64,000 bases of DNA. It comes from FCB group bacterium (lineage in GTDB: Bacteria; Fidelibacterota; Marinisomatia; Marinisomatales; J089). Below the pieces are notes generated by a model. That model made no database searches. It worked only from the letters and a program-made list of their open reading frames with translations, and was not told where the DNA came from. Position 1 is the stretch's first letter. Every line of letters starts with the position of its first letter. Positions 2,560 to 57,392 of this stretch are shown in pieces. Location: the NCBI GenBank assembly GCA_013152835.1, contig JAADFQ010000237.1:138-64137 (forward strand). Direction: 5' to 3'. The position numbers were made by a program, and so were the translations under genes.

Positions 2560-2568
2560 GAGTCGAAA

Positions 2569-3864: not shown

Positions 3865-3870
3865 AATGAT

Positions 3871-4947: not shown

Positions 4948-4958
4948 GGTGAATTAAG

Positions 4959-7834: not shown

Positions 7835-7866
7835 GAAAACTCACCTGGATGAGGATTATTGCGCAC

Positions 7867-7904: not shown

Positions 7905-8035
7905 CAGTTTTTCCAAATGTTTGCGGGTTGTTCTTTTTTGATTCCCCGTGGAAAAGGGAGATAAACTACCATGCCACCGTCGAAGCAGGTCTGGATTTTT
8001 GATTTAAATCACAAATGAAAGCGCAATCAGTGTTC

Positions 8036-8051
8036 TGGCACGGAGTTTGAT
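8036..8051 (+). promoter_or_regulatory. sigma-54 (-24/-12) promoter candidate
   Basis: TGGCAC-GGAGT-TTGAT matches TGGCAC-N5-TTGCW except at the final GC. It lies ~58 nt upstream of the tetrahaem cytochrome ATG and directly downstream of a sigma-54 activator gene. Confidence 0.6.
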
Positions 8052-8108
8052 CTAATAGGGGTGAATGTTTATTGAACTCAGATAGAATTGAATAGAAAGG
8101 ACAAAACA

Positions 8109-26852: not shown

Positions 26853-28499
26853 TTGAATAATGGCTCCCCAATCATGAGTGAGCTAAACGTGTTCAGGGAT
26901 CATCGATTTGTATTCAAAGGAATTGCATTGGCCCTGCTTACGTTTATCATCTATTTTCTGTTTCCCGTACCAGGTTTTCGTCGCTGGGACAGTCTTATGT
27001 CGGCTACTATTGTTCATGATTGGGATTCCATGCCCGGATCGGTAATATTTTTCTTTGCCCACACGCTTGTTCTTCCTATCAGTCGACTGATCAGTCTTCT
27101 CCTTCCGGATCTGGACCCGAATGTTGTCGTAAGTTTACGGGAAATTCTGTTTGCTTCCATGAATACCGTTCTCCTTTTTTGGGGATTAAATTGGGTTTTA
27201 GGAAATTCCCGCACGGCTTTCTGGCTGGCAGCAATAACAATCTTCTTTCATGGTCGATGGATGTTTGCCACTCATGGAGAAGAAAAGGAAATTCTCCTGT
27301 TTTTTCAGCAGATTTCTGTGCTTTATACCTTTCATTATTTGCATTGGACAAAATACGCCTCGCAAGTTTTTAATATCTCAACTCCATATATCGCGGAAAT
27401 TATTCTGGGTTTTCTATTGGCAATATCGGTCATGGCACATCTGGAGAATGGGATAATCGTAGTAACCATCGCTATTGTTCTGGGAATTTCCGCAGGAAAA
27501 AAGCAGATAGGCTGGGCACAATTCTGGTTGATCGGAGTCTCGGCTGTCTCCCTGGGTTTGATTTGGTTTGGGATTATTATTGTGAGCGTAAATGGAATTC
27601 GAACTCTTTCCGGTGCCTTGCAATGGTTATTTGAATATCACGTCACCGGGGAGTTTTTTACGATCACTCCGCACTTTTTTAATCAGATGGTAGAAGCCTG
27701 GACCGGGTTCCGACGCTTACTTATCGGGGAGACCGGAGAGGGTCCCTGGATGACCGTAGAAATGGTTGTGGGATTCGGAATGCTCGTTATTACTATCCGG
27801 AAAGCGTGGACTAGGAATAAACGGATTACCGCTTTTTTCCTAATTTTTCTGGGATTGATGACCGTACATTTTTTCTATTGGCTTCCATGGGATCCGGAAC
27901 AATGGGTACCGACCATTATGGCCGGAATGTTCTTAGTCAGCTTAGCGTGGTTTCATGAATACGATAAACCAAGATTACCGATTTTGATCATAATCCTGGT
28001 TGTCTTAATCGCAGCGAATGGTTATCGGTATATCCGCGATGGCGAATCGGTAAAACCATACCGGTCGTTCAGGATCAACGCAGGTCAGCATATTGGAAAA
28101 GTAAGCGATTGGGTTTTACGCAGTTCCCCCTATCCGAATTTGATAGCGGGATTACGACCATATTTACTACAAGATACAATTGTTTTAGTGGATCAACGGC
28201 ATTTGGCTAACCATTTGATAATCTATTCATCAGCCGTTCCTATAGTTACTGCTTATCTGGATAAAACCGACGATGTTTTACATAAAAAGTATCTGTTAAG
28301 CCAATTAAGTCTTGCCGTTTATCGTCCGGAGTTTTCTACGGTTGAACTGAAGGATAAAATAAGGTCGGGAGAATTGGTGTATTATTTAACGGAAGGACCA
28401 ATACCCGGATTGGTTACGGAGCTGAATGCCAGGGCAATACCATTTCCCGGAACGCGCTGTCTTGATTTTCAATTATGGCGGTTGGAGTCTTTGGAATAG
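26853..28499 (+). CDS. polytopic membrane protein (GT-C-like candidate, unassigned)
   Basis: More than 10 hydrophobic segments followed by a ~170-aa soluble C-terminus. TTG start at 26853 or ATG at 26874. Divergent from P1 and convergent with (31-nt overlap) the next gene. Confidence 0.55.
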   Translation: MNNGSPIMSELNVFRDHRFVFKGIALALLTFIIYFLFPVPGFRRWDSLMSATIVHDWDSMPGSVIFFFAHTLVLPISRLISLLLPDLDPNVVVSLREILFASMNTVLLFWGLNWVLGNSRTAFWLAAITIFFHGRWMFATHGEEKEILLFFQQISVLYTFHYLHWTKYASQVFNISTPYIAEIILGFLLAISVMAHLENGIIVVTIAIVLGISAGKKQIGWAQFWLIGVSAVSLGLIWFGIIIVSVNGIRTLSGALQWLFEYHVTGEFFTITPHFFNQMVEAWTGFRRLLIGETGEGPWMTVEMVVGFGMLVITIRKAWTRNKRITAFFLIFLGLMTVHFFYWLPWDPEQWVPTIMAGMFLVSLAWFHEYDKPRLPILIIILVVLIAANGYRYIRDGESVKPYRSFRINAGQHIGKVSDWVLRSSPYPNLIAGLRPYLLQDTIVLVDQRHLANHLIIYSSAVPIVTAYLDKTDDVLHKKYLLSQLSLAVYRPEFSTVELKDKIRSGELVYYLTEGPIPGLVTELNARAIPFPGTRCLDFQLWRLESLE

Positions 28500-31186: not shown

Positions 31187-32782
31187 TTAAGGCATGGTAA
31201 ATGATATTGTTTGATCCGATCCGCATTTGAAATGGAGCGTCAGCGTAAAATTTGCTCCGGTAACATCTGCTTTGGTGCTGCCGGTAGCGTTAAGATAGAA
31301 GTCCATCCGGTTCAACAGGATATATCCACCGCCGGAAATAAAGGCTGGGGGCTGCGTTTTACAAAAAGTGATATCCACGCCATTCACATTATCCACCAAC
31401 TGCCGTGATTGATTACCGCACCAGGATTGGTTGGCCTGCCAGTAAATCGTGGAAGCGTTAATAAAGGATATGATATTAAGATACGGACTTGGACTCACAT
31501 CACATTTAATTTGCATACCGGTAATAGTAGTGGCTGCACTCCCTGTATTATGGATTCGAAGGCGAACACGATATAGTTGTGGTTTGGTTAGATTCGAATA
31601 AGAAATTACTGCCGGTGAACAGGTCCCACTGGTTGAAAAACTCACCGTTTGGTTTGGTGTCAGACTGGAAAAGAAAGATATTCGGAAGGTAACGTCATTC
31701 ATGGGTTGAACGGTTCCGTTTCCGTCCACCTGGTCCTGGAAAGCAATGGGTCCGATAGTGGTATTGCCGGAGGGTAGTGAAAGGGTATTATCCAACACCA
31801 ACCGGGCTCCGGTAGAGGCCAGAGCACTTCGATTTATCGTATTCCATTTCCAGTAGTCGGTTCCGTTAACGGTAATATTGGCCATATAGGCGTAATCGCA
31901 CTCCCAACAAAGGGAATTGGACCAGCTCACACTGATCTGAGAAATATCCATGATAGTATTACCGGAATTGTTCACGGTAAACGTGAGCTCGGAATTATTT
32001 GTACCTCCGAGGGAAGCTGTTCCGGCCACATAAGTGAGTGTCCCAAAGGTAGGATTAACCGTGTATTCCAACCCTTCCGTCGGACTCGTCGTAGAATTAT
32101 TCGGTCCTACGCTGAGATGTCGTAAAGAAGTATCACCGGAAACAATAAACCGGAGCGTTGCAATGCCTATTGGTACGGAGGAAATATTATATCCCAGAGT
32201 TTTTGAGTAAGTCATTGTTTGCCAGGGGTCACCGCCGTATTGGATCTGAACGGTGGCATCGCTGTCACGGAGAGGATAACCATCGCCGTTTCGTACTCGC
32301 AAAGCGACAGTGTTATTTAATATTTCGGATTTATCATTGGCAATCTTTAACACAATAGGATCACCATCACCGGGACTGGTTAATGTTACCGGGCCGGAAG
32401 TCGGTACGGAATAAGTTATGGTTGTATTCCAGCCATCCCGAAAGAGAGCGGTAGGATCTTCTTTAATTCCCGTGTAATCACCATAAGGACCATCCCAGCC
32501 GGCAACTCCCGGGTCTGTAAGCAAATCGTTTAAACTGGTTGGAAATTGACCGGTGTCGCCTACATAACCATAATCAATACGTACACCGTTTTCCACGATT
32601 TTCGGATTTCCCACGATGGCGTATTTGATTTTGTTCATATTTGCAATGGTCAGATTAAAATTTCGGTTCGTGCTGATACGGGCCAGGGATCGGAATCCTA
32701 CAGCGCTGAGAATACCGATAATAACAATTACCATGACTAACTCAATGAGTGTGAAACCGAGATATGATTTAGATTGCTTCAC
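31187..32782 (-). CDS. giant modular GspG-like pseudopilin (P2)
   Basis: A GTG at 32782 gives the leader MKQSKSYLG|FTLIELVMVIVIIGILSA and removes the 37-nt overlap implied by ATG 32827. GspG-like GDTGQFPTSLNDLL...GWDGPYG...DGWNTTITY, followed by beta-modules. Confidence 0.8.
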   Translation of the reverse strand: MKQSKSYLGFTLIELVMVIVIIGILSAVGFRSLARISTNRNFNLTIANMNKIKYAIVGNPKIVENGVRIDYGYVGDTGQFPTSLNDLLTDPGVAGWDGPYGDYTGIKEDPTALFRDGWNTTITYSVPTSGPVTLTSPGDGDPIVLKIANDKSEILNNTVALRVRNGDGYPLRDSDATVQIQYGGDPWQTMTYSKTLGYNISSVPIGIATLRFIVSGDTSLRHLSVGPNNSTTSPTEGLEYTVNPTFGTLTYVAGTASLGGTNNSELTFTVNNSGNTIMDISQISVSWSNSLCWECDYAYMANITVNGTDYWKWNTINRSALASTGARLVLDNTLSLPSGNTTIGPIAFQDQVDGNGTVQPMNDVTFRISFFSSLTPNQTVSFSTSGTCSPAVISYSNLTKPQLYRVRLRIHNTGSAATTITGMQIKCDVSPSPYLNIISFINASTIYWQANQSWCGNQSRQLVDNVNGVDITFCKTQPPAFISGGGYILLNRMDFYLNATGSTKADVTGANFTLTLHFKCGSDQTISFTMP

Positions 32783-32790
32783 AGTATAGT

Positions 32791-34407
32791 TTAAAGCGTG
32801 AAAGCGATCGTTTGGGTATTTCCGCATTGAAGAATGAACTGGAGGGTATAGGATTGTCCAACTTTTACGGGAACATTGGTGGTTCCGCTCAGATTTTTCC
32901 GGATACGAATATCCACTGTTGCCGTTCCACCGGCATTGATTGTGGGTAAGGCATAGGTACAGATTGAAAAATCGGCAGTACCTACAGCGTTATTGGCAAT
33001 TGTTGGGCGGGCTACGCTGCTGCAAGCGGCTACATCAGCTCGCCAGACATTTGTGGCGTTGAATTGAATTCGTTCCAGATAAGCGGTAGAGGTCGTGATA
33101 TCAGAAGAAACGGTCATGGAAGTAACTGTGACCGGTAGGACTCCCGGATTCTGGATCGTTAGATGGAAGCGGGCGTTATTTACTCGTGAAGCGGCTACAC
33201 TCACTACCAAACTGGGAGCCGGGCAGGTTGTTGTATTATCAAAAGTTATCGTTTGGGAAGGGGCGGTCGAGGATTCGAATTTGATTGTAAACCGGGTAGC
33301 ATTCATATTGATCGTATTGGCTGTAGATCCGTCAGTCCCGTCCAGAAATATTAACGGTCCGATTGAATTTACTCCGGTATAGAGCGACATGCTGGCATCT
33401 AAAATCACTTGGGCACCGCTGGGTACCAGGGACGAACGTCCGTAGGTATTCCATTTCCAATAAGTCAATGTCTTTTTGACTTCGGAAAGGTAGGCGGATT
33501 GACAATTCCAGCAGTCATTGGGCAGTTTGTCCCAGGTAATGGTCATTTTACTAATCTTGAATGTAGGTGTCCCCGTATTCGTAACAGTAAACGAAACCTG
33601 ATTATTTCCTGCCCCGGAAACAGATGCTGAACCGGAAACATAGGTTAAATTACCATAATCGGGATAGACCGTCATTTTAATCGTTCCGCCGGTCGTACCA
33701 TTCGCTTCTTCCACCGATAGTGTTTTATAAACCGTATCGCCTGCGGAAATGGCCCTTAACTGTCTAAGTCCAATAGGAACGGTAGAAATTTTAAAACCGT
33801 TTGCTGAAGAGTAAGTCAGAGGAGTCCATGCATTGCTATAGTAGACGGCCACGGTTCCGTTCGTTCCGTTTATCTCAACACCGTTTTCCCGGTAAAGGCG
33901 GACTTTGACCGTATTGTTCAGGATGGCATTCAAACTTTCCGCGATTTTCACCGTGATTGTATCGCCATCGGCAGGAGTCCAGATTTTGGGAGTCTTGGTC
34001 CCGACGGTAGGTAGTACATACCGGTAGGATTGACCAAAGGCATCCCGTTTGAAAAAGTTGGGATCACCGGTATAACCGGCTTCCACATAAGGACCGGCCC
34101 ATCCTGGTTTACCGGAAGAGTTCTCGAGTAAATCATCCAGGGTGGGAGGCATGACACCTGTATCACCCACATAACCAAAACTGGTTCTCACATTATTCTG
34201 GATAATGTTGGGATCGCCAACGATGGATTTTTTTAAGTTCTGCATCTCCTCATACGTTTCATTAAATTTGGCATTGAGGGTGATGCGAGTGGTTGTTCTG
34301 ACGGCGACTCCGGCCAGAATTCCCATAATCACAATGACGATGATTAATTCAATGAGGGTGAATCCGCCCCTGGAATCGGTGATCGTCATGCTTGCGAATC
34401 TTGGCAT
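32791..34407 (-). CDS. giant modular GspG-like pseudopilin (P3)
   Basis: ...MTITDSRGG|FTLIELIIVIVIMGILAG (alternative start 34389). GDTGVMPPTLDDLL...GWAGPYV...DAFGQSYRY, followed by two ~120-aa modules. At least 10 N-x-S/T sequons. Confidence 0.8.
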   Translation of the reverse strand: MPRFASMTITDSRGGFTLIELIIVIVIMGILAGVAVRTTTRITLNAKFNETYEEMQNLKKSIVGDPNIIQNNVRTSFGYVGDTGVMPPTLDDLLENSSGKPGWAGPYVEAGYTGDPNFFKRDAFGQSYRYVLPTVGTKTPKIWTPADGDTITVKIAESLNAILNNTVKVRLYRENGVEINGTNGTVAVYYSNAWTPLTYSSANGFKISTVPIGLRQLRAISAGDTVYKTLSVEEANGTTGGTIKMTVYPDYGNLTYVSGSASVSGAGNNQVSFTVTNTGTPTFKISKMTITWDKLPNDCWNCQSAYLSEVKKTLTYWKWNTYGRSSLVPSGAQVILDASMSLYTGVNSIGPLIFLDGTDGSTANTINMNATRFTIKFESSTAPSQTITFDNTTTCPAPSLVVSVAASRVNNARFHLTIQNPGVLPVTVTSMTVSSDITTSTAYLERIQFNATNVWRADVAACSSVARPTIANNAVGTADFSICTYALPTINAGGTATVDIRIRKNLSGTTNVPVKVGQSYTLQFILQCGNTQTIAFTL

Positions 34408-34463
34408 ACAAAGGACCTGGCTGGGGGGATCTCAGCCAGGTTGGCCTATTGCTGATTCAAAGA

Positions 34464-37232
34464 TTAGTGACCATGATCATGGTGTCCGCCGCCACCGTGG
34501 TCGTTATGGTTATTTCCACCTGTACCCGGTGTTGTGAAGGTCAACGTATAATCACAGTTATCCCCCACACCAGTAAGTTCCACCGAGAAATCAACACCGC
34601 GCATATCCACGTAACTACCACCGGTAAGTGCATCCTTGAATTTGTAAAATACCAAGGTAACCCGGTCATTCACATCCAGGAAGATGTAATTATTCAAGTC
34701 AAGAACGCCGCCACTGGATAAGCGATCATCACTACCGGCATCCCAGTATGTTGCACTTCCTACCTTGAATTTGGATGCGTAGGCGTCGGATTCATTCCAG
34801 AAACCAGTGATCTGTTTGATCTGGATCGGACTGTCCCCTGTGTTTTTCACGTCAAATTCGACGGTGTAATGCCGTGAGCCGGACACGTCGACATTATTGT
34901 TGTAAATGCCTAATGAGGGACCCGAACGACTATCCGTATCAAATTCGAAGGGATATTGCGTACCGTCGGTAGCGATAAAGGTGACCTTAATGTGGTGACC
35001 GCGCATATCCAGTCGATCGCCGTTGCCATTCACATGATCCTGTTCAACGGAGCACTCAAAACTGTCTTCCTGGTTTGGTGTGCCGCACTCATCGCCGTGA
35101 GCCTTGTGAGCTTCCCAGGCATCAGTGATAATACAGAGAACCTGGGGATTTTCGGTGTCGCCATCCGGATAATGAGTAATTGTAATTTTACCGTCTCCAT
35201 CGCTGTCCGGACAATCCGGTGGAGAATAATGGGATCCGGAATTACCACCGCCATGATTCCCATGATCATTATGGCTTCCATGGCCGTTATGGTTTCCATG
35301 ACCGTGATCATTGTGGTTGTTGCATCCACTGCCCTGGTTTGTACAACTATATCGATGGATATATCCCGAACTTGAATTGGATTCATCATCTAAATAATAG
35401 CCATGACCGTTTTCGGTGATAACCGCATTGGTTGCCGTAATGCTGATCCACCATTGTCCCAGGGCCAGACCGCCGGAACGGTTATCATTGTAGAGATTGA
35501 CCGTCATGTTGTTAGAAGAAATATCATATTGCTTTCCATTATCCATTAAATATGATGATCCATTCACCGTGAGACCGTTCTGATTTCCATTCCCTTTTGG
35601 CTTTACATGAACCCAAACCGCCGAACCCTGATAATCGGATGCGGATTGTGTGAGGTCTTCGCGAGTGATGAGACTGCCGTCGGTCTTCACCAGATAAAAC
35701 TGGTGATTACTGTTATTATTAGGATTAAGGTTGATAGAACCACCGATCGTCGATGTGGTAGTGGGGTCAGAATAATGGTCTCCCCAATCCGATCCGCGGG
35801 AAGTCGTAAAGCCTTTCAGCTCTACGGTTTTCGTAGCATCGCAGATGGAGAATAAATCATCAAGGGCCAGGTATTGACCGGAAGCTACCCGGCAGTCTGT
35901 ATTTTTCCAGTAGGATGTACCGCCCAGTTTTATTTCTTCAAGATAAGGAATAGTGCAGGTTGTATCCCATTCAACGATCATTCCACTGATCGTGATACAG
36001 CAATCCCCGGGATTGGTGATATCAAAGGATATGTCCTGACGATCATGTCCGGATGTTTGCAGTGTTCCACTGGCATAGATTAATGATCCCACCGTCGGAG
36101 GCGTTCCCGGAGCGGTGAAGGAAATAAGTTGGGTAGGGGCAAGGTCAGAGTAGAGATAGAACTGGAAAGTTGTTCCATCCAATTGAATAGGGTCGGCCGC
36201 ACCGGTACGAGCATCGGCGTACTTGACTTCCGTTACATTGAGTGGCGTGCCGGGAGTAACCAATAAGGTGCTTCGCAGGACCAATTCCTGGCCGGACACT
36301 GCCCGTACGCCGTTATTATCGACCAGATAATCCCAGTATGTGCTACCGCCGACTTTAAAGGTTTCCAGATAAGGTGTTTGATTACACCAATTGGAGCCGG
36401 ACCATCCAAAGGATAAACTTTTAATGTTAAATTGACAATCTCCGGTTGCATCGGCCTGAAAAGAAACAATGTCATTCAGGGTTCCGCTGAGCGCGGCGGA
36501 ACTGGAATATTGAATGGTGCCATAATCACAGGTAATGGGCGCCGGGTCGCAAGGCGGGTCGGGACATGCCGGTGGATGAAGCGTGTCAGCCCCACCATTA
36601 GCAACAACAGTGACCTCCAGTCCGCAGGCCGGAAAACCATCGCCGTAGAAGCCGAGGGATGAACTATAGTCCAGTTTAATATCTCCACAACCGTAATTGA
36701 CATAAACATCGATAGATGATGAATCCAAAGGAAGACCGTTATCGTCGGTAAACTGATATTGAACGGAATTGTTGAGTGCATCGGTAATTTCGTTAGACAT
36801 ATCCAAGGTAATGGGGTCAGCACCATTTCCCCCTGCCGTTGAAGTTAACGTCAAATTCTGTGTATCCCAGATGTACGGGTTACCCCAGGGATCATAAAGA
36901 TAATCCAGGGGGTTATTTACAAACGTAACATCAAGGTAGGGTCCCAGCCAACTGCAATACTGATTCCCGCCGGGGTCTTGCAATAAGTCCTGAAGTGTAG
37001 TCGGAATTGAACCATTATCGCCGATAAAACCGCAATCACCCTCAGTACAGCCGACAATTCCACATCGGATTTGTTCCATTTCCGATAATGCCTCCGCTTC
37101 CCAACTGGACGGTGTCAGAACAACGATGACTTGTATGGCTGTCGCTGCCAGGATACCCAAAACAACGATTAAAGCGACCAGTTGAAACAGTGTAAAACCT
37201 TTAGTGTTCTTGGTTGTGCGAATTCTTTGCAT
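34464..37232 (-). CDS. 922-aa modular pseudopilin with Gln5 and His-rich tracts (P4)
   Basis: MQRIRTTKNTKG|FTLFQLVALIVVLGILAA, then a GspG-like region GDNGSIPTTLQDLL...WLGPYL...DPWGNPYIW. At least three of the shared modules. Internal tract CNNHNDHGHGNHNGHGSHNDHGNHGGGNSGSH and C-terminal tract GGNNHNDHGGGGHHDHGH. Confidence 0.8.
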   Translation of the reverse strand: MQRIRTTKNTKGFTLFQLVALIVVLGILAATAIQVIVVLTPSSWEAEALSEMEQIRCGIVGCTEGDCGFIGDNGSIPTTLQDLLQDPGGNQYCSWLGPYLDVTFVNNPLDYLYDPWGNPYIWDTQNLTLTSTAGGNGADPITLDMSNEITDALNNSVQYQFTDDNGLPLDSSSIDVYVNYGCGDIKLDYSSSLGFYGDGFPACGLEVTVVANGGADTLHPPACPDPPCDPAPITCDYGTIQYSSSAALSGTLNDIVSFQADATGDCQFNIKSLSFGWSGSNWCNQTPYLETFKVGGSTYWDYLVDNNGVRAVSGQELVLRSTLLVTPGTPLNVTEVKYADARTGAADPIQLDGTTFQFYLYSDLAPTQLISFTAPGTPPTVGSLIYASGTLQTSGHDRQDISFDITNPGDCCITISGMIVEWDTTCTIPYLEEIKLGGTSYWKNTDCRVASGQYLALDDLFSICDATKTVELKGFTTSRGSDWGDHYSDPTTTSTIGGSINLNPNNNSNHQFYLVKTDGSLITREDLTQSASDYQGSAVWVHVKPKGNGNQNGLTVNGSSYLMDNGKQYDISSNNMTVNLYNDNRSGGLALGQWWISITATNAVITENGHGYYLDDESNSSSGYIHRYSCTNQGSGCNNHNDHGHGNHNGHGSHNDHGNHGGGNSGSHYSPPDCPDSDGDGKITITHYPDGDTENPQVLCIITDAWEAHKAHGDECGTPNQEDSFECSVEQDHVNGNGDRLDMRGHHIKVTFIATDGTQYPFEFDTDSRSGPSLGIYNNNVDVSGSRHYTVEFDVKNTGDSPIQIKQITGFWNESDAYASKFKVGSATYWDAGSDDRLSSGGVLDLNNYIFLDVNDRVTLVFYKFKDALTGGSYVDMRGVDFSVELTGVGDNCDYTLTFTTPGTGGNNHNDHGGGGHHDHGH

Positions 37233-37244
37233 AGTCTAACCCCT

Positions 37245-37772
37245 TTATTTGAGATGAAGACTCAGATCATCACTGGTACTTTTGACACCGTCAGGTCCCC
37301 AACTTAACAGACTGGTATCTCCGGCAGTGGGACTGTATATCTCATAGGTATTGCCCCAGGCATCCGTCTTCCATTCATTGTCAGAGGCAAAATCTTTGGA
37401 GATATAAGGTCCGTTCCATCCGGTTTGTGTGAACCGATTCCAATTGGGATAAGAACCCTGAGTAACGAGATCGTCCATGGAAGACGGCAGATGGCCGATG
37501 TCGCCGTTAAACCCTTTATCGATCAGGACACCGCCGGCCACGGAGGAAGGATCACCCATCAGCGCTTTTTTGAGTTCTGTCATCTCTCCCTTGGTGGCTT
37601 TCAGGCGCGAAGTCTCAATAACGTTGGTGACTTTAGGTATGGCAATCGCCGATAAGATTCCTATTAATACAATGACCATGACCAACTCGATCAGGGTAAA
37701 CCCTTTTGTGAATGTTCTCATTTGTTCTTGATGACTCTTTTTATTCATCCTAATCCTAATCCGGTTATGCAT
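37245..37772 (-). CDS. GspG-like pseudopilin, normal size (P5)
   Basis: ...MRTFTKG|FTLIELVMVIVLIGILSAIAIPK (internal ATGs at 37748 and 37721 are likelier starts). GspG signature GWNGPYI...DAWGNTYEIY...SWGPDG. Confidence 0.85.
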   Translation of the reverse strand: MHNRIRIRMNKKSHQEQMRTFTKGFTLIELVMVIVLIGILSAIAIPKVTNVIETSRLKATKGEMTELKKALMGDPSSVAGGVLIDKGFNGDIGHLPSSMDDLVTQGSYPNWNRFTQTGWNGPYISKDFASDNEWKTDAWGNTYEIYSPTAGDTSLLSWGPDGVKSTSDDLSLHLK

Positions 37773-40312: not shown

Positions 40313-41314
40313 TTAGTAGATCAGCGATAAATAAACTACAACAGCCCCAATACCTAGAAGGCCCAGGAGAAAGCGCTTTTCCAAACTTAATATTTGTTCC
40401 GCCATGTCGTCGATTTCCGCACTGATGAACTGGGAATAATTCAGGATGGTGTTGTACTTGGTTTTCTCCTGTTCAAAGAGGATGATTTCCCGGGCCAGAG
40501 TATCCGGTAAAACAGTGAAATACTTTGGCAGTCGGTCCGGGTCCGGTTTTGATTTAATTAGATTCGCAAGTTTTTGAATGTCCTGAACAAGATAGGAATC
40601 TCCAAGGTAGTTTATTAAAAGACCATTGATTTGTGGAATTGGTACACCGGAACGTTGAAAAACGTTGTATAAAAAACAATAAGTGCTGATTTTGGAGAAA
40701 TGATGAATTTTTCCAGCCAGGGGAATCAGGTTTAATATTTTTTCTTTCCGCATCTCACTTGATATAATATAACGATAAACCCAACCCGCAAGCAGGATAA
40801 TGAAGGCGACCCCACTGGTAGTATATAGCATGTTTTCCAAGGAGAAGGTAAAGAGTTCTAAACGGACCAGTGTGTAGATTGCCCCGCCCAATAAAGCATA
40901 GATTATCATTCGAAGGTAAAACAAGGATACATTGTAATAATCAAACATTTTATTTTCATTTCTTAGATGTAACCGGATCGCTTCCAATCCAACGACCATT
41001 TTCCCACTGCGTTCAGTTGCCATAATCATTGCGATGTAAAAGTTAGGAAATACGTCTTTAAAGGTTAGCATAGCCTGGGAAAGAGGCGTCCCGGATTTTA
41101 CGGCGTTAGCAACGCTGAATAATACCATGCGCTGCACACGATTTCCGGTTGTTTCGAACACGGCGTCCAATGCATCCGGCAGCGTTTGTCCGGCCTGAAT
41201 CTGGGCCAGTAGTTTTTCCGTGAATAACAGGAGCTGTTTATAGGAAAAAGAGGAAGATCCGTATCCCAAATTAGAACTTAGATAGCGCTCAAATCGATTT
41301 AATTTCTCTGCCAA
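40313..41314 (-). CDS. divergent GspF/PilC-family platform protein (333 aa)
   Basis: T2SSF-like repeat QAGQTLPDALDAVFETTGN...VKSGTPLSQAM...MIMATERSGKM, followed by TM segments and a second degenerate repeat (IPLAGKIHHFSKISTYCFLYNVFQRSGVPIPQ). Confidence 0.65.
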   Translation of the reverse strand: MAEKLNRFERYLSSNLGYGSSSFSYKQLLLFTEKLLAQIQAGQTLPDALDAVFETTGNRVQRMVLFSVANAVKSGTPLSQAMLTFKDVFPNFYIAMIMATERSGKMVVGLEAIRLHLRNENKMFDYYNVSLFYLRMIIYALLGGAIYTLVRLELFTFSLENMLYTTSGVAFIILLAGWVYRYIISSEMRKEKILNLIPLAGKIHHFSKISTYCFLYNVFQRSGVPIPQINGLLINYLGDSYLVQDIQKLANLIKSKPDPDRLPKYFTVLPDTLAREIILFEQEKTKYNTILNYSQFISAEIDDMAEQILSLEKRFLLGLLGIGAVVVYLSLIY

Positions 41315-41326: not shown

Positions 41327-43435
41327 CTATTCGTCGTCTGAATAGTTCACAGAATCTATCCATGAATCAATGGATGTGATCTCAGGATTTATTCTTTTTG
41401 CCAACTGTAAGCTTAAGAAAGCTGAGTCTTGGTTCCCAAGATAATAATAATTCCGGCCCATGAGATACCAGGCATACCCGTAGGTTGAGTCTGTTTTTAT
41501 CACTGATTTCAAATTTCCGAGGGATTGCTTGTACTGTCCTAATTGTTGGAGCGCATCGCCAAAAGCAACTTTTGCGGATAAATCTCTGGGATCCCACTTG
41601 ATAAATTTTTTAAACCATACCAATGATGATTCCGGTTCTTCAAATTGCAGCCAGGTTTCGGCGCGATTGATCCATAAATCCGGATTATTTGGATAGAGTT
41701 CCAGCGCCCGGTTAAAAAATCGGTTCATTTTCGGAACGGTAAGCCACATATCCCGCCAGCCGGGCATGGTGGTATCCAGGACCGTTAGTTTATCCAAAGA
41801 AAACCCTGATGACACCAACTGCAAAAGATGGCGTTTATAAAATTCTCCCCGTACCTGCCAGTAATTCCATGTTAGGGGGCCCAGTTCGGTACTTCTCTCA
41901 AATTCTTTCTCCGCTGAATTCAATAAAATCCATTTCTTCAAATGATCCTTTTCCCGAATTGCCTGGTTACTATATACTGATCCAAGATGCATATAATTTT
42001 CACCCCTCCGGGATTCCAAAACCGTAGCAATCTGATAATTTTTCAGGGCGGAATAATAATCTTCTGCATCAACGGCTCTATCCCCTTGCTGAGTAAAATA
42101 CTGAGCCAGAGGTTGAATAACACTGAATACGACCAGCGTTATTAAAACGATTATCTGAAAAAGCCGTTGCGTAGGGACTGCGATTACTTTTCCCGTAATA
42201 GGTATTTGTTGAATAGAAGCATTTGGATGATGGCGGAGAAAAATAGCGATAAATAAAAGAAAGAGGGTCAAAATACCCGGGATGTATAAATGATAATCCA
42301 CAAAAGTATGGATTAGCACAGCCAGTGCACCCACACCCATACCGGTAACCGGTGCGGATATTTTATCCAATTGTTTATGTAAACGGAACCAGGAGAAACC
42401 TTTCCCCGCCAGAAAAATCAGAAAAATAAGAAATAAACCCAGACCAATGATTCCCAGTTCCTCAAAATATTGAAGATAATCATTATGGGCAAAATCAAAG
42501 CGAATTCCAGGAGGTAGCCATTGTGTATTCGTGATATGAAATGTTCTGAAGCCGTATCCGATCCAGGGATGATCTTTGGCGAGATGAAAAGTCTGAGCCC
42601 AGATTCGTTGTCTGCCGAAGGTATCGGGATCGGTCAGGCTTCCCATCCGGGAAATAATTTGACTGCCGGGTATGGCGCTCAGCCCAACAATAACCAGAAT
42701 CATACTCAGGGCCACTCTTTTTAATTTTAGTGCGAATGTCTGAATTAATTGGTAGCGATGAAGAATGTATAGATTTAACACTACCGATGTTAAGAAAAAG
42801 GCCAGCCAACCAGCACGGGAATAGGTAGTACCCAGTACCCATTCACCAATAAATAATAGCAAAAACAAGATTCGTTCATACTTTCGTTTCGGGGAATAAA
42901 GATACTTCCAGAAAATCATAGGCCAGATCAGAATTATGTATCCGGCGAAGGTGTTTGGCCAGACAAAAAAACCATGGGAACGGGCGAAAAAACTACCCTG
43001 AATTGTATTTGCATTGATTTCAGTGAAAAATTGCCAGATTCCTATAAGCATTTCGATTCCGAACAATACAAGAATGAACTTGACGATGAAGGATTCATCC
43101 AGCCGATCTGGATAATTCACTGTTGCAAAAAAGAGAATAAAAGCTGCCAGATATGTTAACGATTTATAATCGGTAGCAAACGCGTCGATGGTCCAGATAT
43201 TTGAAAGTAATATCCAGAAAATGAATGCGGCAAAAATAATAATAAGGATATTGTTACGGATTGTGTACTCTTTATTTTTATTGCATAAATAATAATAAAT
43301 CCCCAATAATCCCGATGCGCTACATAGCAGAATGGTGTTATACAAAGGCGTTTCCGGACCGCGGTCAAAAGGAATGAAAAGAAAAACCAAACCCCAGAAA
43401 AGAAGGAAGAGATTGTTAATCATCCGTTTCCCCAA
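41327..43435 (-). CDS. O-antigen-ligase-like (Wzy_C) membrane protein with C-terminal TPR domain
   Basis: Polytopic, with SRAGWLAFFL and the ligase hallmark FAHNDYLQYFEELGIIG. The C-terminal ~250 aa are TPR-like (ALELYPNNPDLWINRAETWLQ..., AFGDALQQLGQYKQS..., AWYLMGRNYYYLGNQDSA...). Confidence 0.8.
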   Translation of the reverse strand: MGKRMINNLFLLFWGLVFLFIPFDRGPETPLYNTILLCSASGLLGIYYYLCNKNKEYTIRNNILIIIFAAFIFWILLSNIWTIDAFATDYKSLTYLAAFILFFATVNYPDRLDESFIVKFILVLFGIEMLIGIWQFFTEINANTIQGSFFARSHGFFVWPNTFAGYIILIWPMIFWKYLYSPKRKYERILFLLLFIGEWVLGTTYSRAGWLAFFLTSVVLNLYILHRYQLIQTFALKLKRVALSMILVIVGLSAIPGSQIISRMGSLTDPDTFGRQRIWAQTFHLAKDHPWIGYGFRTFHITNTQWLPPGIRFDFAHNDYLQYFEELGIIGLGLFLIFLIFLAGKGFSWFRLHKQLDKISAPVTGMGVGALAVLIHTFVDYHLYIPGILTLFLLFIAIFLRHHPNASIQQIPITGKVIAVPTQRLFQIIVLITLVVFSVIQPLAQYFTQQGDRAVDAEDYYSALKNYQIATVLESRRGENYMHLGSVYSNQAIREKDHLKKWILLNSAEKEFERSTELGPLTWNYWQVRGEFYKRHLLQLVSSGFSLDKLTVLDTTMPGWRDMWLTVPKMNRFFNRALELYPNNPDLWINRAETWLQFEEPESSLVWFKKFIKWDPRDLSAKVAFGDALQQLGQYKQSLGNLKSVIKTDSTYGYAWYLMGRNYYYLGNQDSAFLSLQLAKRINPEITSIDSWIDSVNYSDDE

Positions 43436-45095
43436 GGTATTTTAATAAATATTTATCTATAGGGTCCGGCGCCCATCGATTATGACGTTTAATCTCTTTT
43501 ATTGCCAGGAGTGAATCTTCATTAGTATGGAGGAGCGGTATTAATCCCATTGGTGTGTATGGTCGGTTATAAAGTTTATATTCAAATTTATCGATATAGG
43601 CTTGATTTGATTCATTGCGTTTGATATAAATAAAGTGCCGATAGCTGTTCCAGAATACAAGGGCCCATTTGTTTTGATCAAGCGGACTCGAATCTATCCA
43701 ATGAAACGAAAAGGGATTAATGATAATTAATGTTTGAAAATTATAGAGGCTGTCAGCCGTTAGAAAATCAGGTCTGTTCCAAGACATTTGATTATATTGA
43801 TGAACAAATTCCGAAGGGTAGGAAGGTATTCGTCCATCAATAAACGTTCTCCTTTCAGGGTAAAAGTTCCAGATCAGGTACCCGCCCCAGAAAAAATCAT
43901 TGAAGAGGGGTTCGGGAACTGGATTTTTGTTAATAAACCGCGTAGCATGTACCGGTAGTACCGTCGGATCAATTCCAATCCCAAAATTGTAGGAGGGCAT
44001 GAGACGGTTATCGCCACTGATAATATTGAAAGGCTCAATGGTCAGTCCATAAATAAAGAGTAAATACAATATCCATCGGTATCGGAAATTCTTCCATACA
44101 TTGATTATCTTAACAGGAAATGTAGCGACCATGCATACAAGTGCACTAATCTCAAAATAAGGTATTATACGATTGTATTTAATAGACAATAACAGGAAAA
44201 AAAGTGCTGGAAGGAAAAACCGGGGCAACTTTTTTTCTCTTCCCAGGTATATAAGGACTACAAGAAAAAAAATCGGAATAGTTAACCAGTAATACATCAT
44301 TTTATCAAACCCGAAATAACTAGTCGGCATATATTCGGAAATGACAATTAAATCGTTTACATTCAGATGTGCATAGGGATATACGATGAATTGAGTAAAG
44401 TGTGGATTAATTAAGGCTCCCAGAAAACCAGTTATCAATAACAAGATTCCGGATTTTATTATCCGGATGGTTTTGAAGAAGTTTATCTGATTAGCCATTA
44501 GTATATGAATGAATTTTTCTAATGTGTCTAGGGCAAGAAACACAATTCCGAATAAAACACCTGCATGAATGTTGCTCCAAACAATGAACAGGAGAAAAAT
44601 AGCAAAATAATTGTATTTTTTCGGTGGACGAGACGCAATTAATACAGTTAGGGCAAAAAATACTATGGAAAATAAATGCGCACGGAGCAGGAGACGAAAA
44701 TTAATGGAAAAAAGAATCCAGATAATTCCTATACAATTAATAAAAACAGATTTGTTTACAGTCCAAAACAGATTAAGCAATATTAAGATTAACAGTTCAA
44801 CCATAATAACTCTAAAAACAATTAGTCCTGTGATTCCTGCCCCTTGGTGGACAAAAAATGCCAGAGTTGAAAACAGCCATTGGGGTGTTTCCCACGGATA
44901 ATCAGGATTTGAGTAAGAAAAATAATTCGTAGTAGGTAATTGACCATGTTCCACAATATATCGACCTTCAGCAAGGCTCCACCAGATGTCGCCGGTCTGA
45001 AGGCGATGGTAGCTGATTATAAAACCAAAGACAAAAAGACTAAAAATTAACAGTCTTTCGGTTGTTCGATTAATTTGCAGATGGAACGATTCCAT
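43416..45095 (-). CDS. polytopic membrane protein (GT-C-like candidate, unassigned)
   Basis: First gene of the long minus-strand operon. Roughly 12 hydrophobic segments. A loop GDIWWSLAEGRYIVEHGQLPTTNYFSY near the N-terminus and NDFFWGGYLIWNFYPERRTFIDGR before a soluble C-terminus. Confidence 0.55.
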   Translation of the reverse strand: MESFHLQINRTTERLLIFSLFVFGFIISYHRLQTGDIWWSLAEGRYIVEHGQLPTTNYFSYSNPDYPWETPQWLFSTLAFFVHQGAGITGLIVFRVIMVELLILILLNLFWTVNKSVFINCIGIIWILFSINFRLLLRAHLFSIVFFALTVLIASRPPKKYNYFAIFLLFIVWSNIHAGVLFGIVFLALDTLEKFIHILMANQINFFKTIRIIKSGILLLITGFLGALINPHFTQFIVYPYAHLNVNDLIVISEYMPTSYFGFDKMMYYWLTIPIFFLVVLIYLGREKKLPRFFLPALFFLLLSIKYNRIIPYFEISALVCMVATFPVKIINVWKNFRYRWILYLLFIYGLTIEPFNIISGDNRLMPSYNFGIGIDPTVLPVHATRFINKNPVPEPLFNDFFWGGYLIWNFYPERRTFIDGRIPSYPSEFVHQYNQMSWNRPDFLTADSLYNFQTLIIINPFSFHWIDSSPLDQNKWALVFWNSYRHFIYIKRNESNQAYIDKFEYKLYNRPYTPMGLIPLLHTNEDSLLAIKEIKRHNRWAPDPIDKYLLKYLGETDD

Positions 45096-45304
45096 GATTT
45101 TCCTTTAGGTCTAAATAAATATTAGATCTTCTCAATACTCAAATTAAAGGTAAAATCAATAAAAACCACTTTATACTTCTTTCCAATGATATAGAATTCC
45201 ACTGAAATTTAACAGCAGTTTCACTACCGGATAATGTGCTGAATGATAGCTTCAACGGTAAGAAAAATCAATTCGAAAACCCAGCAATAGAGCTATAGGG
45301 AATT

Positions 45305-46147
45305 ATGGCAACACGATATAGGACATTGCCTCAACTGGCAGCGATATTCTTATTACTATCCTTGGTAATCCTTTATATGAAGCGCGACGAATACAAAATG
45401 AAGTTGGAAGACTGGATGACGGAAGCTTCGAAGAGTGTAGCCAGTGATTCACTGACAGGAATCAAAGATACAGCTTCTGTAAAAGTCCAGATCGAACCGA
45501 AGGATTTAGCCGGTGGTTTGGTGGCCTATTATCCTTTTATGCAAAATGCCAAAGACGCGTCTAAAAATAAAAACGATGGAAAACTCATAGATGTTACGCT
45601 CGCTATCGATCGATATGGAAATCCTGATAATGCGTTTAGGTTCAATCGGAATCAGTTTATTGAAATTAAAGACAGTCCCAGCTTCAAAAGTATTAAAACA
45701 GGTGTTTCCGCTTTTGCCTGGATAAACCTTTCCCAATATGGTGGGTTTCGGAGTGGAATTGTTTCCCAGGACGGGAAATGGGTTTTGGGTGTTTATCGCG
45801 GTGTTCTGGTCGGTAAGGTCTATTTAGATAATGGTCATTCCATTTATTTGGAAAGCTCTCAGGGAGTATCCTTGAACCATTGGAATCATGTTGCAATGAC
45901 ATTTAACGGACAGACCTTGGCCCTGTATATCAACGGTCGGAAAGTAGCGACAAAACCAGCACCGGGGCGATACCAGATTAAAAGACCGAAAAATTTTCGT
46001 TTATATGGTCAACCATCTATTGGAAGAGCTTTTGGTGTCGGTGGTAAAAGTTTCATTGGTTCCATTGATGATGTTTTTATTTATAATCGTGTTTTAAATG
46101 AAACGGAATTGGCAGCGATTTTTAATGGAGAATTACCTGAATTATAA
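45305..46147 (+). CDS. membrane-anchored LamG/concanavalin-like lectin-fold protein
   Basis: N-terminal TM segment (LPQLAAIFLLLSLVILY). LamG_3-like hallmarks LVAYYPFMQNAKDASKNKNDG...DRYGNPDNAFRFN...WNHVAMTFNGQTLALYINGRKV...IGSIDDVFIYNRVLNETEL. Confidence 0.7.
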   Translation: MATRYRTLPQLAAIFLLLSLVILYMKRDEYKMKLEDWMTEASKSVASDSLTGIKDTASVKVQIEPKDLAGGLVAYYPFMQNAKDASKNKNDGKLIDVTLAIDRYGNPDNAFRFNRNQFIEIKDSPSFKSIKTGVSAFAWINLSQYGGFRSGIVSQDGKWVLGVYRGVLVGKVYLDNGHSIYLESSQGVSLNHWNHVAMTFNGQTLALYINGRKVATKPAPGRYQIKRPKNFRLYGQPSIGRAFGVGGKSFIGSIDDVFIYNRVLNETELAAIFNGELPEL

Positions 46148-46275: not shown

Positions 46276-46686
46276 TTATGGAGCCGAAGTTGAGCGGGTA
46301 CCGATTGTTCCGGTACTGGACGAATAAGACCAATAATATTTACTCGCGTCGCTTCGCTGGTGATAAACATAATTATTTGTGGAGTTAAATCCCCATGTAT
46401 CATTTCCGGCCGGCGTGGGTGCGGTGGAGGTGTATCCTGTGGGTGTTTGATCCAAACCGTCAAAAGGATCGGTAGGATAAACCTGACCGTTTCCGGAGGC
46501 CATCTCATTAACACTATAGGTGTAAACACCGGATCGTAAGCCACCAATTACGCCATCTTCAGCCGATATATGGGCTTGATTTGTTAGATTTGCAAACTTA
46601 GGTATAGCGACAGCTGCCAGAATACCTAAGATGACAATTACCATGACCAATTCGATCAGGGTAAATCCTTCCTGGTTACGTTTCAT
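46276..46686 (-). CDS. type IV pilin / pseudopilin (136 aa), probable major subunit
   Basis: AGGAG precedes the ATG. MKRNQEG|FTLIELVMVIVILGILAAVAIPKF is a classical class III signal. The C-terminal part is Ser/Thr/Tyr-rich and has no Cys. Confidence 0.9.
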   Translation of the reverse strand: MKRNQEGFTLIELVMVIVILGILAAVAIPKFANLTNQAHISAEDGVIGGLRSGVYTYSVNEMASGNGQVYPTDPFDGLDQTPTGYTSTAPTPAGNDTWGFNSTNNYVYHQRSDASKYYWSYSSSTGTIGTRSTSAP

Positions 46687-56837: not shown

Positions 56838-57392
56838 CTAAATTTTTCCCCCGGGGTTAATAACATAAAAATAAGCGCTCATTTTGGCAATAACGGTCAC
56901 ATGGTCATCGCTGCGATTCAGAGATAAATTCGAGATGTAAATATGAAACGGTAACTGATACAAAGATTCGATGAACATACCAAAATTAAGATAACTACCA
57001 TTAATCTCAATTTCTATCGGTACTTTAACAAAATAATTTGGAGATTCCAACATGGCTTGAATGGCCGGTGATATTTTGTCAATAGTCAAATCTCTGGTGA
57101 GAGCAGCCTCAACAATGTCATTAACCATTGTGGAAACCTGATCTTTTGTGGGCAGCTTCATGGAAAGGGAATCAAATTCTTCCACCATTGAACTTACGGA
57201 TGCTTTGAGACTCGGGAGACTGTTGATGGATACATTGCTCCGGCTTAATTGTCCGTTCAATTGGCTGATTTCAGTCTGAATAGTATAGATTTTGTTTACC
57301 TGAGCCTGATACATGAAAAAATACCAGGCGACAATACTGGCGATTACAGCCAGAAAGCCAAGAGCCAGGATTTGACGCGCGTTAACCTTCAT
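56838..57392 (-). CDS. pilO: PilO/MshJ-like protein
   Basis: One TM segment (ILALGFLAVIASIVAWYFF), then coiled coil and a ferredoxin-like C-terminal part. Operon position supports the call. Confidence 0.6.
   Translation of the reverse strand: MKVNARQILALGFLAVIASIVAWYFFMYQAQVNKIYTIQTEISQLNGQLSRSNVSINSLPSLKASVSSMVEEFDSLSMKLPTKDQVSTMVNDIVEAALTRDLTIDKISPAIQAMLESPNYFVKVPIEIEINGSYLNFGMFIESLYQLPFHIYISNLSLNRSDDHVTVIAKMSAYFYVINPGGKI

Follow-up and report, generated by a model that had tools for sequence, protein, structure and literature searches.

A TPR-fused O-antigen-ligase-family enzyme and an overlapping GT-C-fold gene as a candidate pilin glycosylation module in a bacterial type IV pilus cluster

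The window analysed here is a stretch of 64,000 nucleotides (nt) of the 64.7-kb contig JAADFQ010000237.1 from an uncultured FCB group bacterium, whose nearest relatives carry the source labels Fidelibacterota or Candidatus Neomarinimicrobiota, and its minus strand is mostly occupied between about 25 kb and 61 kb by a single type IV pilus cluster. Within the cluster lie two genes for polytopic membrane proteins of 559 and 702 amino acids (aa), recorded at NCBI under the locus tags GXO90_11075 and GXO90_11070, which are predicted to encode a glycosyltransferase of the GT-C fold and an enzyme of the Wzy_C/O-antigen-ligase family fused to tetratricopeptide repeats (TPRs), and which probably form a module for glycosylation of the pilus. 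The cluster opens with genes for an AAA protein, a PilM-PilN fusion, PilO, a small protein with a weak CdsD_C match and a secretin, and continues with a T2SSE ATPase, a LysM protein, a response regulator, a prepilin peptidase, a PilB-like ATPase, a sigma-54 activator, PilC and a 136-aa pilin. Beyond a LamG gene on the plus strand it resumes with the 559-aa and 702-aa genes, a half-size PilC, two PilT-type ATPases, a GspG-like 175-aa pilin, pilins of 922, 538 and 546 aa and a membrane/spermidine-synthase-like fusion, after which come a 548-aa polytopic gene on the plus strand and, next to it on the minus strand, the gene for a 554-aa pilin. The initial annotation of this DNA had described the genes from the half-size PilC to the 546-aa pilin in the same terms, and the third polytopic open reading frame (ORF) that it placed at 26853-28499 on the plus strand is present and encodes the 548-aa protein. 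Coordinates of the features discussed are collected in Table 1.

Both ORFs of the pair had been noted before, together with a 20-nt overlap, and the ORF listing returns them with exactly these coordinates, the shared segment running from 43416 to 43435 when the 702-aa frame is read from its TTG start. The NCBI record starts this second gene at an ATG 12 nt downstream, which gives a protein of 698 aa and an overlap of 8 nt, ATGATTAA. Either start leaves both genes overlapping, which implies translational coupling, and the conservation of homologues in other assemblies indicates that both ORFs are real genes and not chance ORFs. With the LamG gene (45305-46147) encoded on the other strand, the same-strand run begins with the 559-aa gene; the downstream gaps are small, and the run may be co-transcribed. 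The G+C content over positions 42000-46000, which hold both glycosylation genes and the LamG gene, is 0.37-0.40 compared with 0.41-0.47 in the flanking pilus genes, and this could reflect either the codon content of membrane proteins or separate acquisition.

Table 1. Features of the candidate glycosylation module and its neighbours (window positions, unless another locus is named)
Feature	Coordinates	Strand	Basis or remark
559-aa polytopic protein, predicted GT-C-fold glycosyltransferase, family unnamed	43416..45095	-	ATG start; ORF listing, AlphaFold2 model, Foldseek
Asp36 codon, candidate catalytic or metal-binding Asp at start of first periplasmic loop	44988..44990	-	conserved in 28/29
Invariant W173-x-N175-x-H177 motif	44565..44579	-	29/29 sequences
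V-I-S-E, aa 251-254, long periplasmic loop	44334..44345	-	I252 in 21/29, E254 in 27/29
702-aa Wzy_C/O-antigen-ligase-family enzyme with 13th transmembrane helix and C-terminal TPR; candidate pilin O-oligosaccharyltransferase	41327..43435	-	TTG start; Pfam, profile, AlphaFold2, synteny
Ligase motif H317-N-X9-G328-II-G331, HNDYLQYFEELGIIG, aa 317-331	42443..42487	-	exact match to H[NSQ]X9GXX[GTY]
Extra (13th) transmembrane helix, aa 420-456	42068..42178	-	AlphaFold2 helix after 12-helix core
TPR solenoid, aa 460-701, predicted periplasmic; candidate acceptor-protein docking domain	41333..42058	-	Pfam, PDB sequence, Foldseek
136-aa type IV pilin, probable major pilin, most likely acceptor	46276..46686	-	N_methyl and GspG-like matches; tail ...GTIGTRSTSAP
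Sigma-54-like -24/-12 element TGGCATGGTTATTGAA	46753..46768	-	67-82 nt upstream of small pilin start; two mismatches to TGGCAC-N5-TTGCW
280-aa LamG/ConA-like (Laminin_G_3) protein, N-terminal transmembrane helix	45305..46147	+	PF13385, E 1.7e-22
Half-size PilC/GspF-like platform protein, 333 aa, one T2SSF domain	40313..41314	-	PF00482
GspG-like 175-aa pilin and giant pilins of 922, 538 and 546 aa, possible further acceptors	31187..37772	-	prepilin motifs, GspG-like N-termini
548-aa polytopic orphan	26853..28499	+	only 7 relatives; those named are Fidelibacterota/Neomarinimicrobiota metagenome-assembled genomes
PMT_2+TPR GT-C, 548 aa, TfpW-like architecture	L015 4149-5795	-	occupies the slot of the 559-aa GT-C

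The 702-aa protein matches Pfam Wzy_C (PF04932) over aa 195-336 with an E-value of 2.8e-19 and 69.8 bits against a cut-off of 31.7. A profile built from its first 460 residues and ten relatives found one entry in the PDB, the O-antigen ligase WaaL of Cupriavidus metallidurans (7TPG/7TPJ, E 1e-22), where the N-terminal part searched as a single sequence gave no match. The match to 7TPG spans residues 148-401 of the 413-aa chain, ends at about residue 405 of the query and aligns the SRGG, RxxIW and AHND stretches of WaaL with the profile. It is AHND that aligns with H317-N-X9-G-XX-G, an instance of H[NSQ]X9GXX[GTY], which we take to be the periplasmic-loop motif of Wzy_C/O-antigen ligases; the WaaL/PglL-type signature that the initial annotation had quoted, FAHNDYLQYFEELGIIG, is present at aa 315-331. 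Over 22 relatives R207, R263, R275, H317, N318, Y320 and G328 are invariant and G331 nearly so, and the AlphaFold2 (AF2) model (mean predicted local distance difference test score, pLDDT, 88.3) has a 12-helix core. These results identify the protein as a true member of the Wzy_C/O-antigen-ligase family with an intact motif. Enzymes with Wzy_C domains need a conserved His for activity (PMC9829042), for which H317 is the candidate, and transfer of a lipid-linked glycan to protein Ser/Thr is the probable activity of the enzyme.

In the AF2 model the core is followed by a loop rich in R, H and K (aa 401-424), an additional transmembrane (TM) helix and an all-helical solenoid that extends to residue 701. 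Pfam places TPR families at aa ~570-690, in agreement with the earlier description of the protein as O-antigen-ligase-like and TPR-containing. Sequence matches of this part in the PDB are consensus TPR proteins and OGT, with PelB as a weak match, and Foldseek matches of the full 702-aa model are CTPR, OGT, SPINDLY and APC subunits, the top 50 being only TPR proteins with none for the membrane core. By sequence and fold, then, the C-terminal part resembles the TPRs of the protein glycosyltransferases OGT and SPINDLY. If the C-terminus of WaaL is cytoplasmic, the additional helix would carry the TPR domain across to the periplasmic face, where the active site lies. For the O-oligosaccharyltransferases (O-OTases) WsfB and PglL, too, a TPR motif at the C-terminus has been described (PMC2943079).

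The evidence that associates this enzyme with pili comes from its relatives (loci are given as L numbers). In a scan of species genomes, with one genome per species, the best 80 relatives of the 702-aa protein were classed by the length of the tail that follows the AHNDY motif, the classes compared being long (at least 250 aa) and WaaL-sized, and prepilin signal motifs were searched on both strands. A prepilin gene lies within ~3-4 kb of seven of the 11 long-tail relatives and of none of the 66 short ones (Fisher p = 1.4e-7). Nine of the 11, all but L015 and L090, were scanned by Pfam and all nine have Wzy_C and TPR, among them L014, which is on the same contig as L001; one distant pilin-linked relative, L035, has Wzy_C_2. 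The prepilin pattern found nothing in 78 unrelated loci totalling 638 kb, and false positives are therefore rare. Five of the seven positive loci are outside the clade of the window, in metagenome-assembled genomes (MAGs) labelled Clostridia, Planctomycetota, Proteobacteria, Pseudomonadota and Gammaproteobacteria, and the other two are unclassified MAGs of the clade itself. Outside the clade the arrangements follow the plan pilB-pilC-(pilA)-OTase-(pilA)-pilD, for example pilB-pilC-OTase-pilA-pilD or pilC-pilA-OTase. In the metagenome loci L008 and L011 (~22-27% identity) the gene is found directly between small pilin genes of other pilus clusters, and it is immediately beside a small pilin in these two loci as well as in the metagenome locus L010 and in L064, L069 and L079.

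Closer to the window, the whole order of small pilin, LamG, GT-C, Wzy_C-TPR, half-size PilC, two PilT and pilins is kept in L001, L009 and L172, with no LamG gene called in L001; the short contig L173 has the same order as far as it reaches, and L010 (33% identity) has it without the GT-C. In statistical terms, then, Wzy_C-TPR proteins are linked to prepilin genes across phyla. Pilin-specific O-OTases are typically encoded beside their substrates, and the linkage seen here is the genomic signature of the substrate-linked enzymes TfpO, TfpM and PglS (PMC12645811, PMC9829042).

For the 559-aa protein neither Pfam nor NCBIfam returned a match, a PDB sequence search gave nothing with the protein alone and nothing at E<1 with a 29-sequence profile, and Pfam across 39 family members found nothing apart from C-terminal TPRs on the longer ones. 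Its assignment therefore rests on structure prediction. The AF2 model, computed from the 29-sequence alignment, has a pLDDT of 89.8 and a predicted TM-score (pTM) of 0.90, and the comparison with GT-C structures proposed in the initial annotation was positive, with all significant PDB matches being glycosyltransferases that use lipid-linked sugars. Foldseek matches 1-29 against the PDB are all GT-C enzymes, the best being yeast STT3 (6ezn_F, E 1e-6, query-normalised TM-score (TMq) 0.57); further matches are AglB, PglB, human STT3A, DPY19, ArnT, AftA, ALG9, Pmt4, AftB and Emb. The best matches have a TMq of 0.49-0.57, and folds other than GT-C appear only at E > 0.3. Of the 12 matches at E<=1e-3, 11 are chains of protein-acting enzymes, either the N-oligosaccharyltransferases STT3, AglB and PglB or the C-mannosyltransferase DPY19, and the twelfth is STT3A from the human OST-A complex. 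The modelled structure thus allows the protein to be assigned with confidence as a GT-C-fold glycosyltransferase. The family to which it belongs comprises 44,973 clusters at 50% identity with E<=1e-3, or 22,538 with E<=1e-30; the source names, where given, are 'hypothetical protein', and many members carry C-terminal TPRs.

Several conserved positions are consistent with this assignment. In the AF2 model D36 lies just after the first TM helix (residues 2-28), at the start of an amphipathic helix (36-50), and would correspond to the catalytic position of GT-C enzymes; Asp34 is found in 18 of the 29 sequences, giving a family DxD motif, where the window protein reads T-G-D (T34). The WxNxH motif would lie where the fifth TM helix reaches the periplasm, the topology being derived from the model. 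The sequence V-I-S-E at 251-254 resembles what we take to be the TIXE/SVSE loop motif of oligosaccharyltransferases. Other conserved residues of the family are P231, R309, G404-G-Y406 and D420-x-R422, and the invariant motifs WxNxH, GGYLIW and FIDGR are distinct from those of the known GT-C_A enzymes. By the predicted topology all family-invariant residues would be on the periplasmic side, where the active site of a GT-C is expected. The WWD[YWF]G motif is absent from the protein, the conserved stretch F-W-G-G-Y-L-I-W being without Asp, and neither a TfpW-type DDX in loop 1 nor a YX6PFX7P motif was found in it. In L001 (~9850-10000) and L009 (~8300-8446) a run of N shortens the GT-C gene calls to 516 aa; the frame continues upstream, encoding the first TM helix and the GD motif, and both proteins are full-length like that of the window.

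Overlapping or abutting pairs of GT-C and Wzy_C-TPR genes are found in the window, L001, L009, L172 and L173, with the GT-C proteins at 54-71% identity. In L015 the slot is filled by the PMT_2+TPR protein of Table 1, apparently a non-orthologous replacement in a locus that otherwise follows the same plan; PMT_2+TPR is also the architecture of TfpW, which is proven to be a GT-C glycosyltransferase of pilins and has its gene beside pilA (bioRxiv 10.1101/2020.04.19.049825). Gene context thus places recruitment of the GT-C to the pilus locus in one clade only, and this recruitment looks functional because throughout the clade the two frames overlap or adjoin and because an analogue is found in the same slot of L015. 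Elsewhere the family recurs in two other settings. At least 20 of the loci L094-L171 (for example L094 518-6714) have a tight operon of PorV-like, NHL and GT-C genes and a PLD-fn3 protein with a C-terminal sorting domain of the type IX secretion system, and nine other loci have a GT2 gene of 232-253 aa within 500 nt of the GT-C, which would be the arrangement in which a polyprenyl-phosphate-sugar synthase usually accompanies a GT-C. Tandem GT-C duplicates occur in several loci of L094-L171.

Across phyla, what is conserved directly beside the Wzy_C-TPR gene is a small pilin of ordinary type (130-175 aa) and not a giant one, and a small pilin of the 136-aa type precedes the module in L001, L009, L010, L015, L172 and L173. 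The initial annotation had read the locus as one of pilin glycosylation; the association of Wzy_C-TPR with prepilins supports this in part, while the giant pilins as its target are an extrapolation, the conserved partner being the small pilin. As it had remarked, the pilins are rich in Ser and Thr, which make up 18-22% of their residues, a share that is 10-11% for the LamG protein and the pair of membrane proteins. In the pilins encoded beside Wzy_C-TPR genes the C-terminal residue is Pro, Gln, Leu, Asp, Gly, Arg or Cys (...RSTSAP, ...RTTTAP, ...VGDQ, ...YSSGL); these pilins have Ser/Thr in the last 2-6 residues, many of them finishing in [ST]-x0-2-P (TSAP, TTAP, ATTP, KSP, TVP, THP), although several of the tails compared come from close relatives. 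We regard these tails as a lead to the acceptor site; the Neisseria PglL glycotag WPAAASAP also ends in SAP, like the tail of the window pilin (PMC12645811).

The initial annotation had also pointed to the N-x-S/T sequons of the pilins. Its counts are correct, but when set against 2000 composition-preserving shuffles only the 546-aa pilin (31187-32827, minus strand) is enriched, with 21 sequons against 8.7 expected and none of the 2000 shuffles reaching 21. The 538-aa pilin, which it had used as its example (P3), has 11 against 8.2 expected (P = 0.19), the 136-, 538-, 554- and 922-aa pilins are all at the level of the shuffles, and the 175-aa pilin has no sequon. Sequon enrichment as a signature of these pilins was therefore rejected for four of the five that bear sequons. 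The extended bacterial sequon D/E-x-N-x-S/T is not enriched in the pilins, and the Bacteroidota-type O-glycosylation motif D[ST][AILVMT], which was tried as a further candidate, is not enriched in any of them.

Upstream of the small pilin, the sigma-54-like element TGGCATGGTTATTGAA is plausible only by its position and by the adjoining sigma-54 activator gene at 48076-49293, as such matches number 15 across the window where 22.7 are expected, which is below chance; no sigma-54 promoter was found upstream of the GT-C gene. A separate feature of the 922-aa pilin (34464-37232, minus strand) is its low-complexity runs rich in His, Asp, Gly and Asn, HNDHGHGNHNGHGSHNDHGNHGG, together with its C-terminus, GGNNHNDHGGGGHHDHGH. 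A fragment from a relative (L001 19794-20333) ends in GGDDHGDHGDHGDHGDH, and this conserved tail looks metal-binding.

Starting from the fold and family of both enzymes, their intact motifs, the gene overlap, the synteny and the cross-phylum association with prepilins, we infer a periplasmic topology, the donors, the identity and site of the acceptor and the cooperation of the two enzymes. The reading that we prefer, with a probability of about 0.6, is that the pair forms a pilus-dedicated periplasmic glycosylation module, in which a TPR-fused Wzy_C O-OTase similar to TfpO, TfpM or PglS is coupled to a GT-C that either acts like TfpW or PMT or decorates the glycan. The Wzy_C core would take a glycan that had been built on undecaprenyl pyrophosphate and flipped to the periplasm, and would move it en bloc onto a Ser/Thr hydroxyl of the membrane-anchored pilin before assembly. 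The extra TM helix would put the TPR solenoid in the periplasm, where it could dock the acceptor protein, most likely the 136-aa pilin with its Ser/Thr-rich C-terminal tail RSTSAP; the Ser/Thr-rich giant pilins are possible additional acceptors. The 559-aa GT-C, translationally coupled to the 702-aa enzyme and possibly in complex with it, would use a polyprenyl-phosphate-linked sugar in the periplasm, adding it directly to pilin Ser/Thr in the manner of TfpW and PMT or decorating the glycan that has been transferred. Donor glycans would be supplied by pathways elsewhere in the genome, just as TfpO borrows O-antigen units.

A number of observations weigh against this interpretation, and modification of the pilins by the pair, while probable, is predicted from the genes and not proven. 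A Wzy_C sequence by itself does not separate O-OTases from WaaL ligases and some polymerases (PMC12645811), and PglL_A (PF15864) and Wzy_C_2 (PF11846) are absent among the Pfam matches of the 702-aa protein at E<=0.01. None of the pilins adjacent to Wzy_C-TPR genes has the C-terminal Ser/Thr of the TfpO/TfpM acceptor rule, and in the window the small pilin is 2.8 kb upstream of the OTase gene, with the LamG and GT-C genes between. Four of the 11 long-tail relatives have no pilin nearby, and the metagenome relative L012 is found among He_PIG/Big_2/cadherin-like surface proteins, which means that the architecture is not exclusive to pilins. Among GT-C relatives at 21-29% identity a prepilin or Wzy_C neighbour was found in none of 78 metagenome loci, on which a general pilus linkage of the family was rejected, and three further relatives are in unrelated contexts; since the family at large is not pilus-linked, the case for the GT-C rests on one clade and the L015 analogue. 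Finally, the 64-kb window has no phosphoglycosyltransferase, flippase, sugar-nucleotide or GT2 gene.

Some of these points would suit a Wzy_C-TPR protein that is a general O-OTase like PglL, for which pilins are one class of target, or the LamG protein the true one, and whose locus reflects co-regulation rather than specificity. PglL-type enzymes modify pilins along with many other proteins (PMC12645811), TPR domains bind proteins generically, five related loci keep the LamG gene as a neighbour, and the SAP of the pilin tail resembles the PglL glycotag; the surroundings of L012 and the four relatives that lack a pilin fit equally well. General O-OTase genes are, however, usually unlinked to their targets (PMC12645811), whereas here the prepilin link recurs in MAGs of several lineages with pilin genes immediately flanking, and the marker domains PglL_A and Wzy_C_2 are undetected, for which reasons we consider this explanation unlikely. 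We give equally little credence to the proposal that the pair builds or ligates a surface polysaccharide, with the Wzy_C-TPR protein as O-antigen ligase or Wzy-like polymerase and the GT-C decorating a lipid or wall glycan, and that it is co-expressed with pili to supply, for example, an exopolysaccharide for pilus-dependent motility or adhesion. The sole solved homologue is indeed the lipopolysaccharide (LPS) ligase WaaL, the nearest relative is named 'O-antigen ligase family protein' by NCBI, Pfam Wzy_C includes both ligases and polymerases, and TPRs are also found on polysaccharide-export scaffolds, in line with the weak PelB match. Enzymes with lipid or glycan substrates, namely ArnT, AftA and Emb, are likewise among the GT-C fold matches, and relatives of the GT-C occur in non-pilus contexts beside GT2, polysaccharide deacetylase and epimerase genes. 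Yet Wzx, Wzz, Wza, core glycosyltransferases and other LPS, O-antigen or exopolysaccharide genes were not found in the 64-kb window, several loci wedge the gene between pilin genes with no other glycan gene nearby, and pilin linkage distinguishes the TPR-fused proteins (7/11) from the WaaL-sized ones without TPR (0/66).

The similarity to oligosaccharyltransferase (OST) subunits raises a further reading, in which the 559-aa protein is a divergent STT3-like N-oligosaccharyltransferase acting on N-x-S/T and, together with the Wzy_C-TPR enzyme, provides dual N- and O-glycosylation. OST subunits are the best Foldseek matches (STT3 at E 1e-6, AglB and PglB at ~3e-5, compared with 1e-3 for ArnT), the [T/V]-I-x-E loop motif and the first-loop DxD of the family presumably recall OST motifs, and the 546-aa pilin has its excess of sequons. 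Against this, ArnT and OST are not told apart by TM-scores of 0.50-0.57, the protein matches neither Pfam STT3 (PF02516) nor, even with the family profile, any PDB sequence, and the pairing of the family with small GT2 genes suggests donors of the monosaccharide-phosphate-lipid type and not pyrophosphate-linked oligosaccharides. The chance-level sequons of four of the five pilins, their absence from the 175-aa pilin, the unenriched extended sequon and the FWGGY without Asp in place of WWDYG make N-glycosylation improbable. It is just as doubtful that the 559-aa family is a very large, unannotated STT3-like branch of GT-C enzymes, represented here by a protein oligosaccharyltransferase without WWDYG that modifies pilins beside the TPR-fused Wzy_C O-OTase, with the 546-aa pilin as its prime N-target. 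Were it true, these would be dual N-/O-glycosylated bacterial pili, analogous to the AglB-dependent N-glycosylation of archaeal pilins and archaellins.

Known enzymes share parts of the design proposed for the pilus-dedicated module. TfpO/PilO from Pseudomonas aeruginosa group I and Acinetobacter and TfpM from Moraxellaceae likewise have a Wzy_C with a conserved His motif, are encoded in a pilus locus beside a small pilin, as are the relatives in L008, L011, L064, L069 and L079, and also have neither PglL_A nor Wzy_C_2 (PMC12645811). They are, however, proteins of 420-470 aa without a large C-terminal domain (PMC9829042), compared with 702 aa here including the 13th TM helix and a 240-aa TPR part; their acceptor is a C-terminal Ser/Thr, whereas the pilins here end in ...TSAP, ...TTAP and similar; and, unlike theirs, the OTase gene in the window has the LamG and GT-C genes between it and the pilin. 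PglL of Neisseria, PglS of Acinetobacter and WsfB of the Paenibacillus S-layer are large Wzy_C enzymes with a C-terminal periplasmic extension, as predicted here, and modify internal Ser/Thr (Tyr for WsfB) in low-complexity segments rich in Ser, Ala and Pro. The PglL_A and Wzy_C_2 markers of PglL and PglS are undetected in the 702-aa protein, pglL is unlinked to pilE whereas the 702-aa gene is embedded in a pilus cluster, and the TPR here is a full multi-repeat solenoid in comparison with the TPR motif noted in PglL and WsfB. The 702-aa protein has in common with C. metallidurans WaaL (7TPG) the 12-TM core and the periplasmic-loop Arg and His motifs, but WaaL is a protein of ~400-420 aa with no 13th TM helix or TPR that modifies lipid A-core and has its gene among those for LPS, not among pilus genes. 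As it departs from them in size, in the C-terminal acceptor residue or in the marker domains, the 702-aa protein, judged by its sequence, belongs to the Wzy_C superfamily and does not fit the definition of any named O-OTase class.

The 559-aa protein is best compared with TfpW, the D-arabinofuranosyltransferase (D-Araf transferase) of P. aeruginosa group IV pilins, which is likewise a GT-C in a pilin locus with a periplasmic TPR in the module and acts on pilin Ser/Thr (bioRxiv 10.1101/2020.04.19.049825). The TPR of TfpW is on the GT-C itself, whereas in the window it is on the Wzy_C partner and the 559-aa protein has none; this protein also has neither the DDX and YX6PFX7P of TfpW nor D-Araf genes nearby, DprE1/DprE2-like genes being found nowhere in the window, and it would belong to a different, unnamed GT-C family. 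With the GT-C_A enzymes (STT3/PglB/AglB, DPY19, ArnT and PMT) it has in common the predicted fold, an Asp in the first external loop and a soluble C-terminal periplasmic domain, but no similarity at the level of sequence and no WWDYG. TPR fusions are frequent in its family, as in TMTC and TfpW.

Only a few pilin-specific O-oligosaccharyltransferases are known, namely TfpO, TfpM and PglS, and each new O-OTase class has been adopted for bioconjugate-vaccine engineering because tolerance for acceptor and glycan differs by class (PMC9829042, PMC12800693). If the proposal is correct, the TPR-fused Wzy_C enzymes would be a fourth pilin-linked class, distributed over Fidelibacterota-like, Clostridia, Planctomycetota and Proteobacteria MAGs, which would recognise its acceptor through the TPR and use a sequon other than a C-terminal residue. 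The literature that we searched contained no paper linking an O-antigen ligase with TPR to a type IV pilin, and none on the family of the 559-aa GT-C. As this family comprises ~45,000 clusters without a Pfam or NCBIfam model, its fold, motifs and first functional context should be useful for annotation, while for the organism glycosylated pili could alter adhesion, filament solubility or phage resistance.

Other genes accompany the module. The LamG gene is divergent between the small pilin and the GT-C, is found in the same place in L009, L010, L015, L172 and L173, and may encode a lectin-like partner or an alternative acceptor. The half-size PilC follows directly after the Wzy_C-TPR gene in the window, L001, L009, L010 and L172 according to Pfam, and in L015 there is a size-matched ORF of 337 aa; a full-length PilC is also present in the window, at 46844-48073. 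The 548-aa orphan matched nothing in Pfam, the PDB or profile searches, and its gene invariably neighbours the giant pilins and the spermidine-synthase-like fusion. This fusion is an 823-aa membrane protein joined to a spermidine-synthase-like domain (NF037959), with the two genes together at 26853-30940 in the window and 10001-14682 in L013, and neither has an obvious part to play in a pilus; hhalign shows no relation of either protein to the GT-C, with probabilities below 2%. The PilM-PilN fusion (57382-60405, minus strand) is a protein of 1007 aa with an N-terminal extension of ~450 aa that has no Pfam match. At the other end of the window, on the plus strand at 898-8729 and ~15-20 kb from the giant pilins, three multihaem cytochrome genes with doubled CXXCH motifs, one of them with an MtrC/MtrF-like domain, adjoin an NHL-repeat protein and a histidine kinase/sigma-54 response-regulator pair, and this cluster may be an extracellular electron-transfer module.

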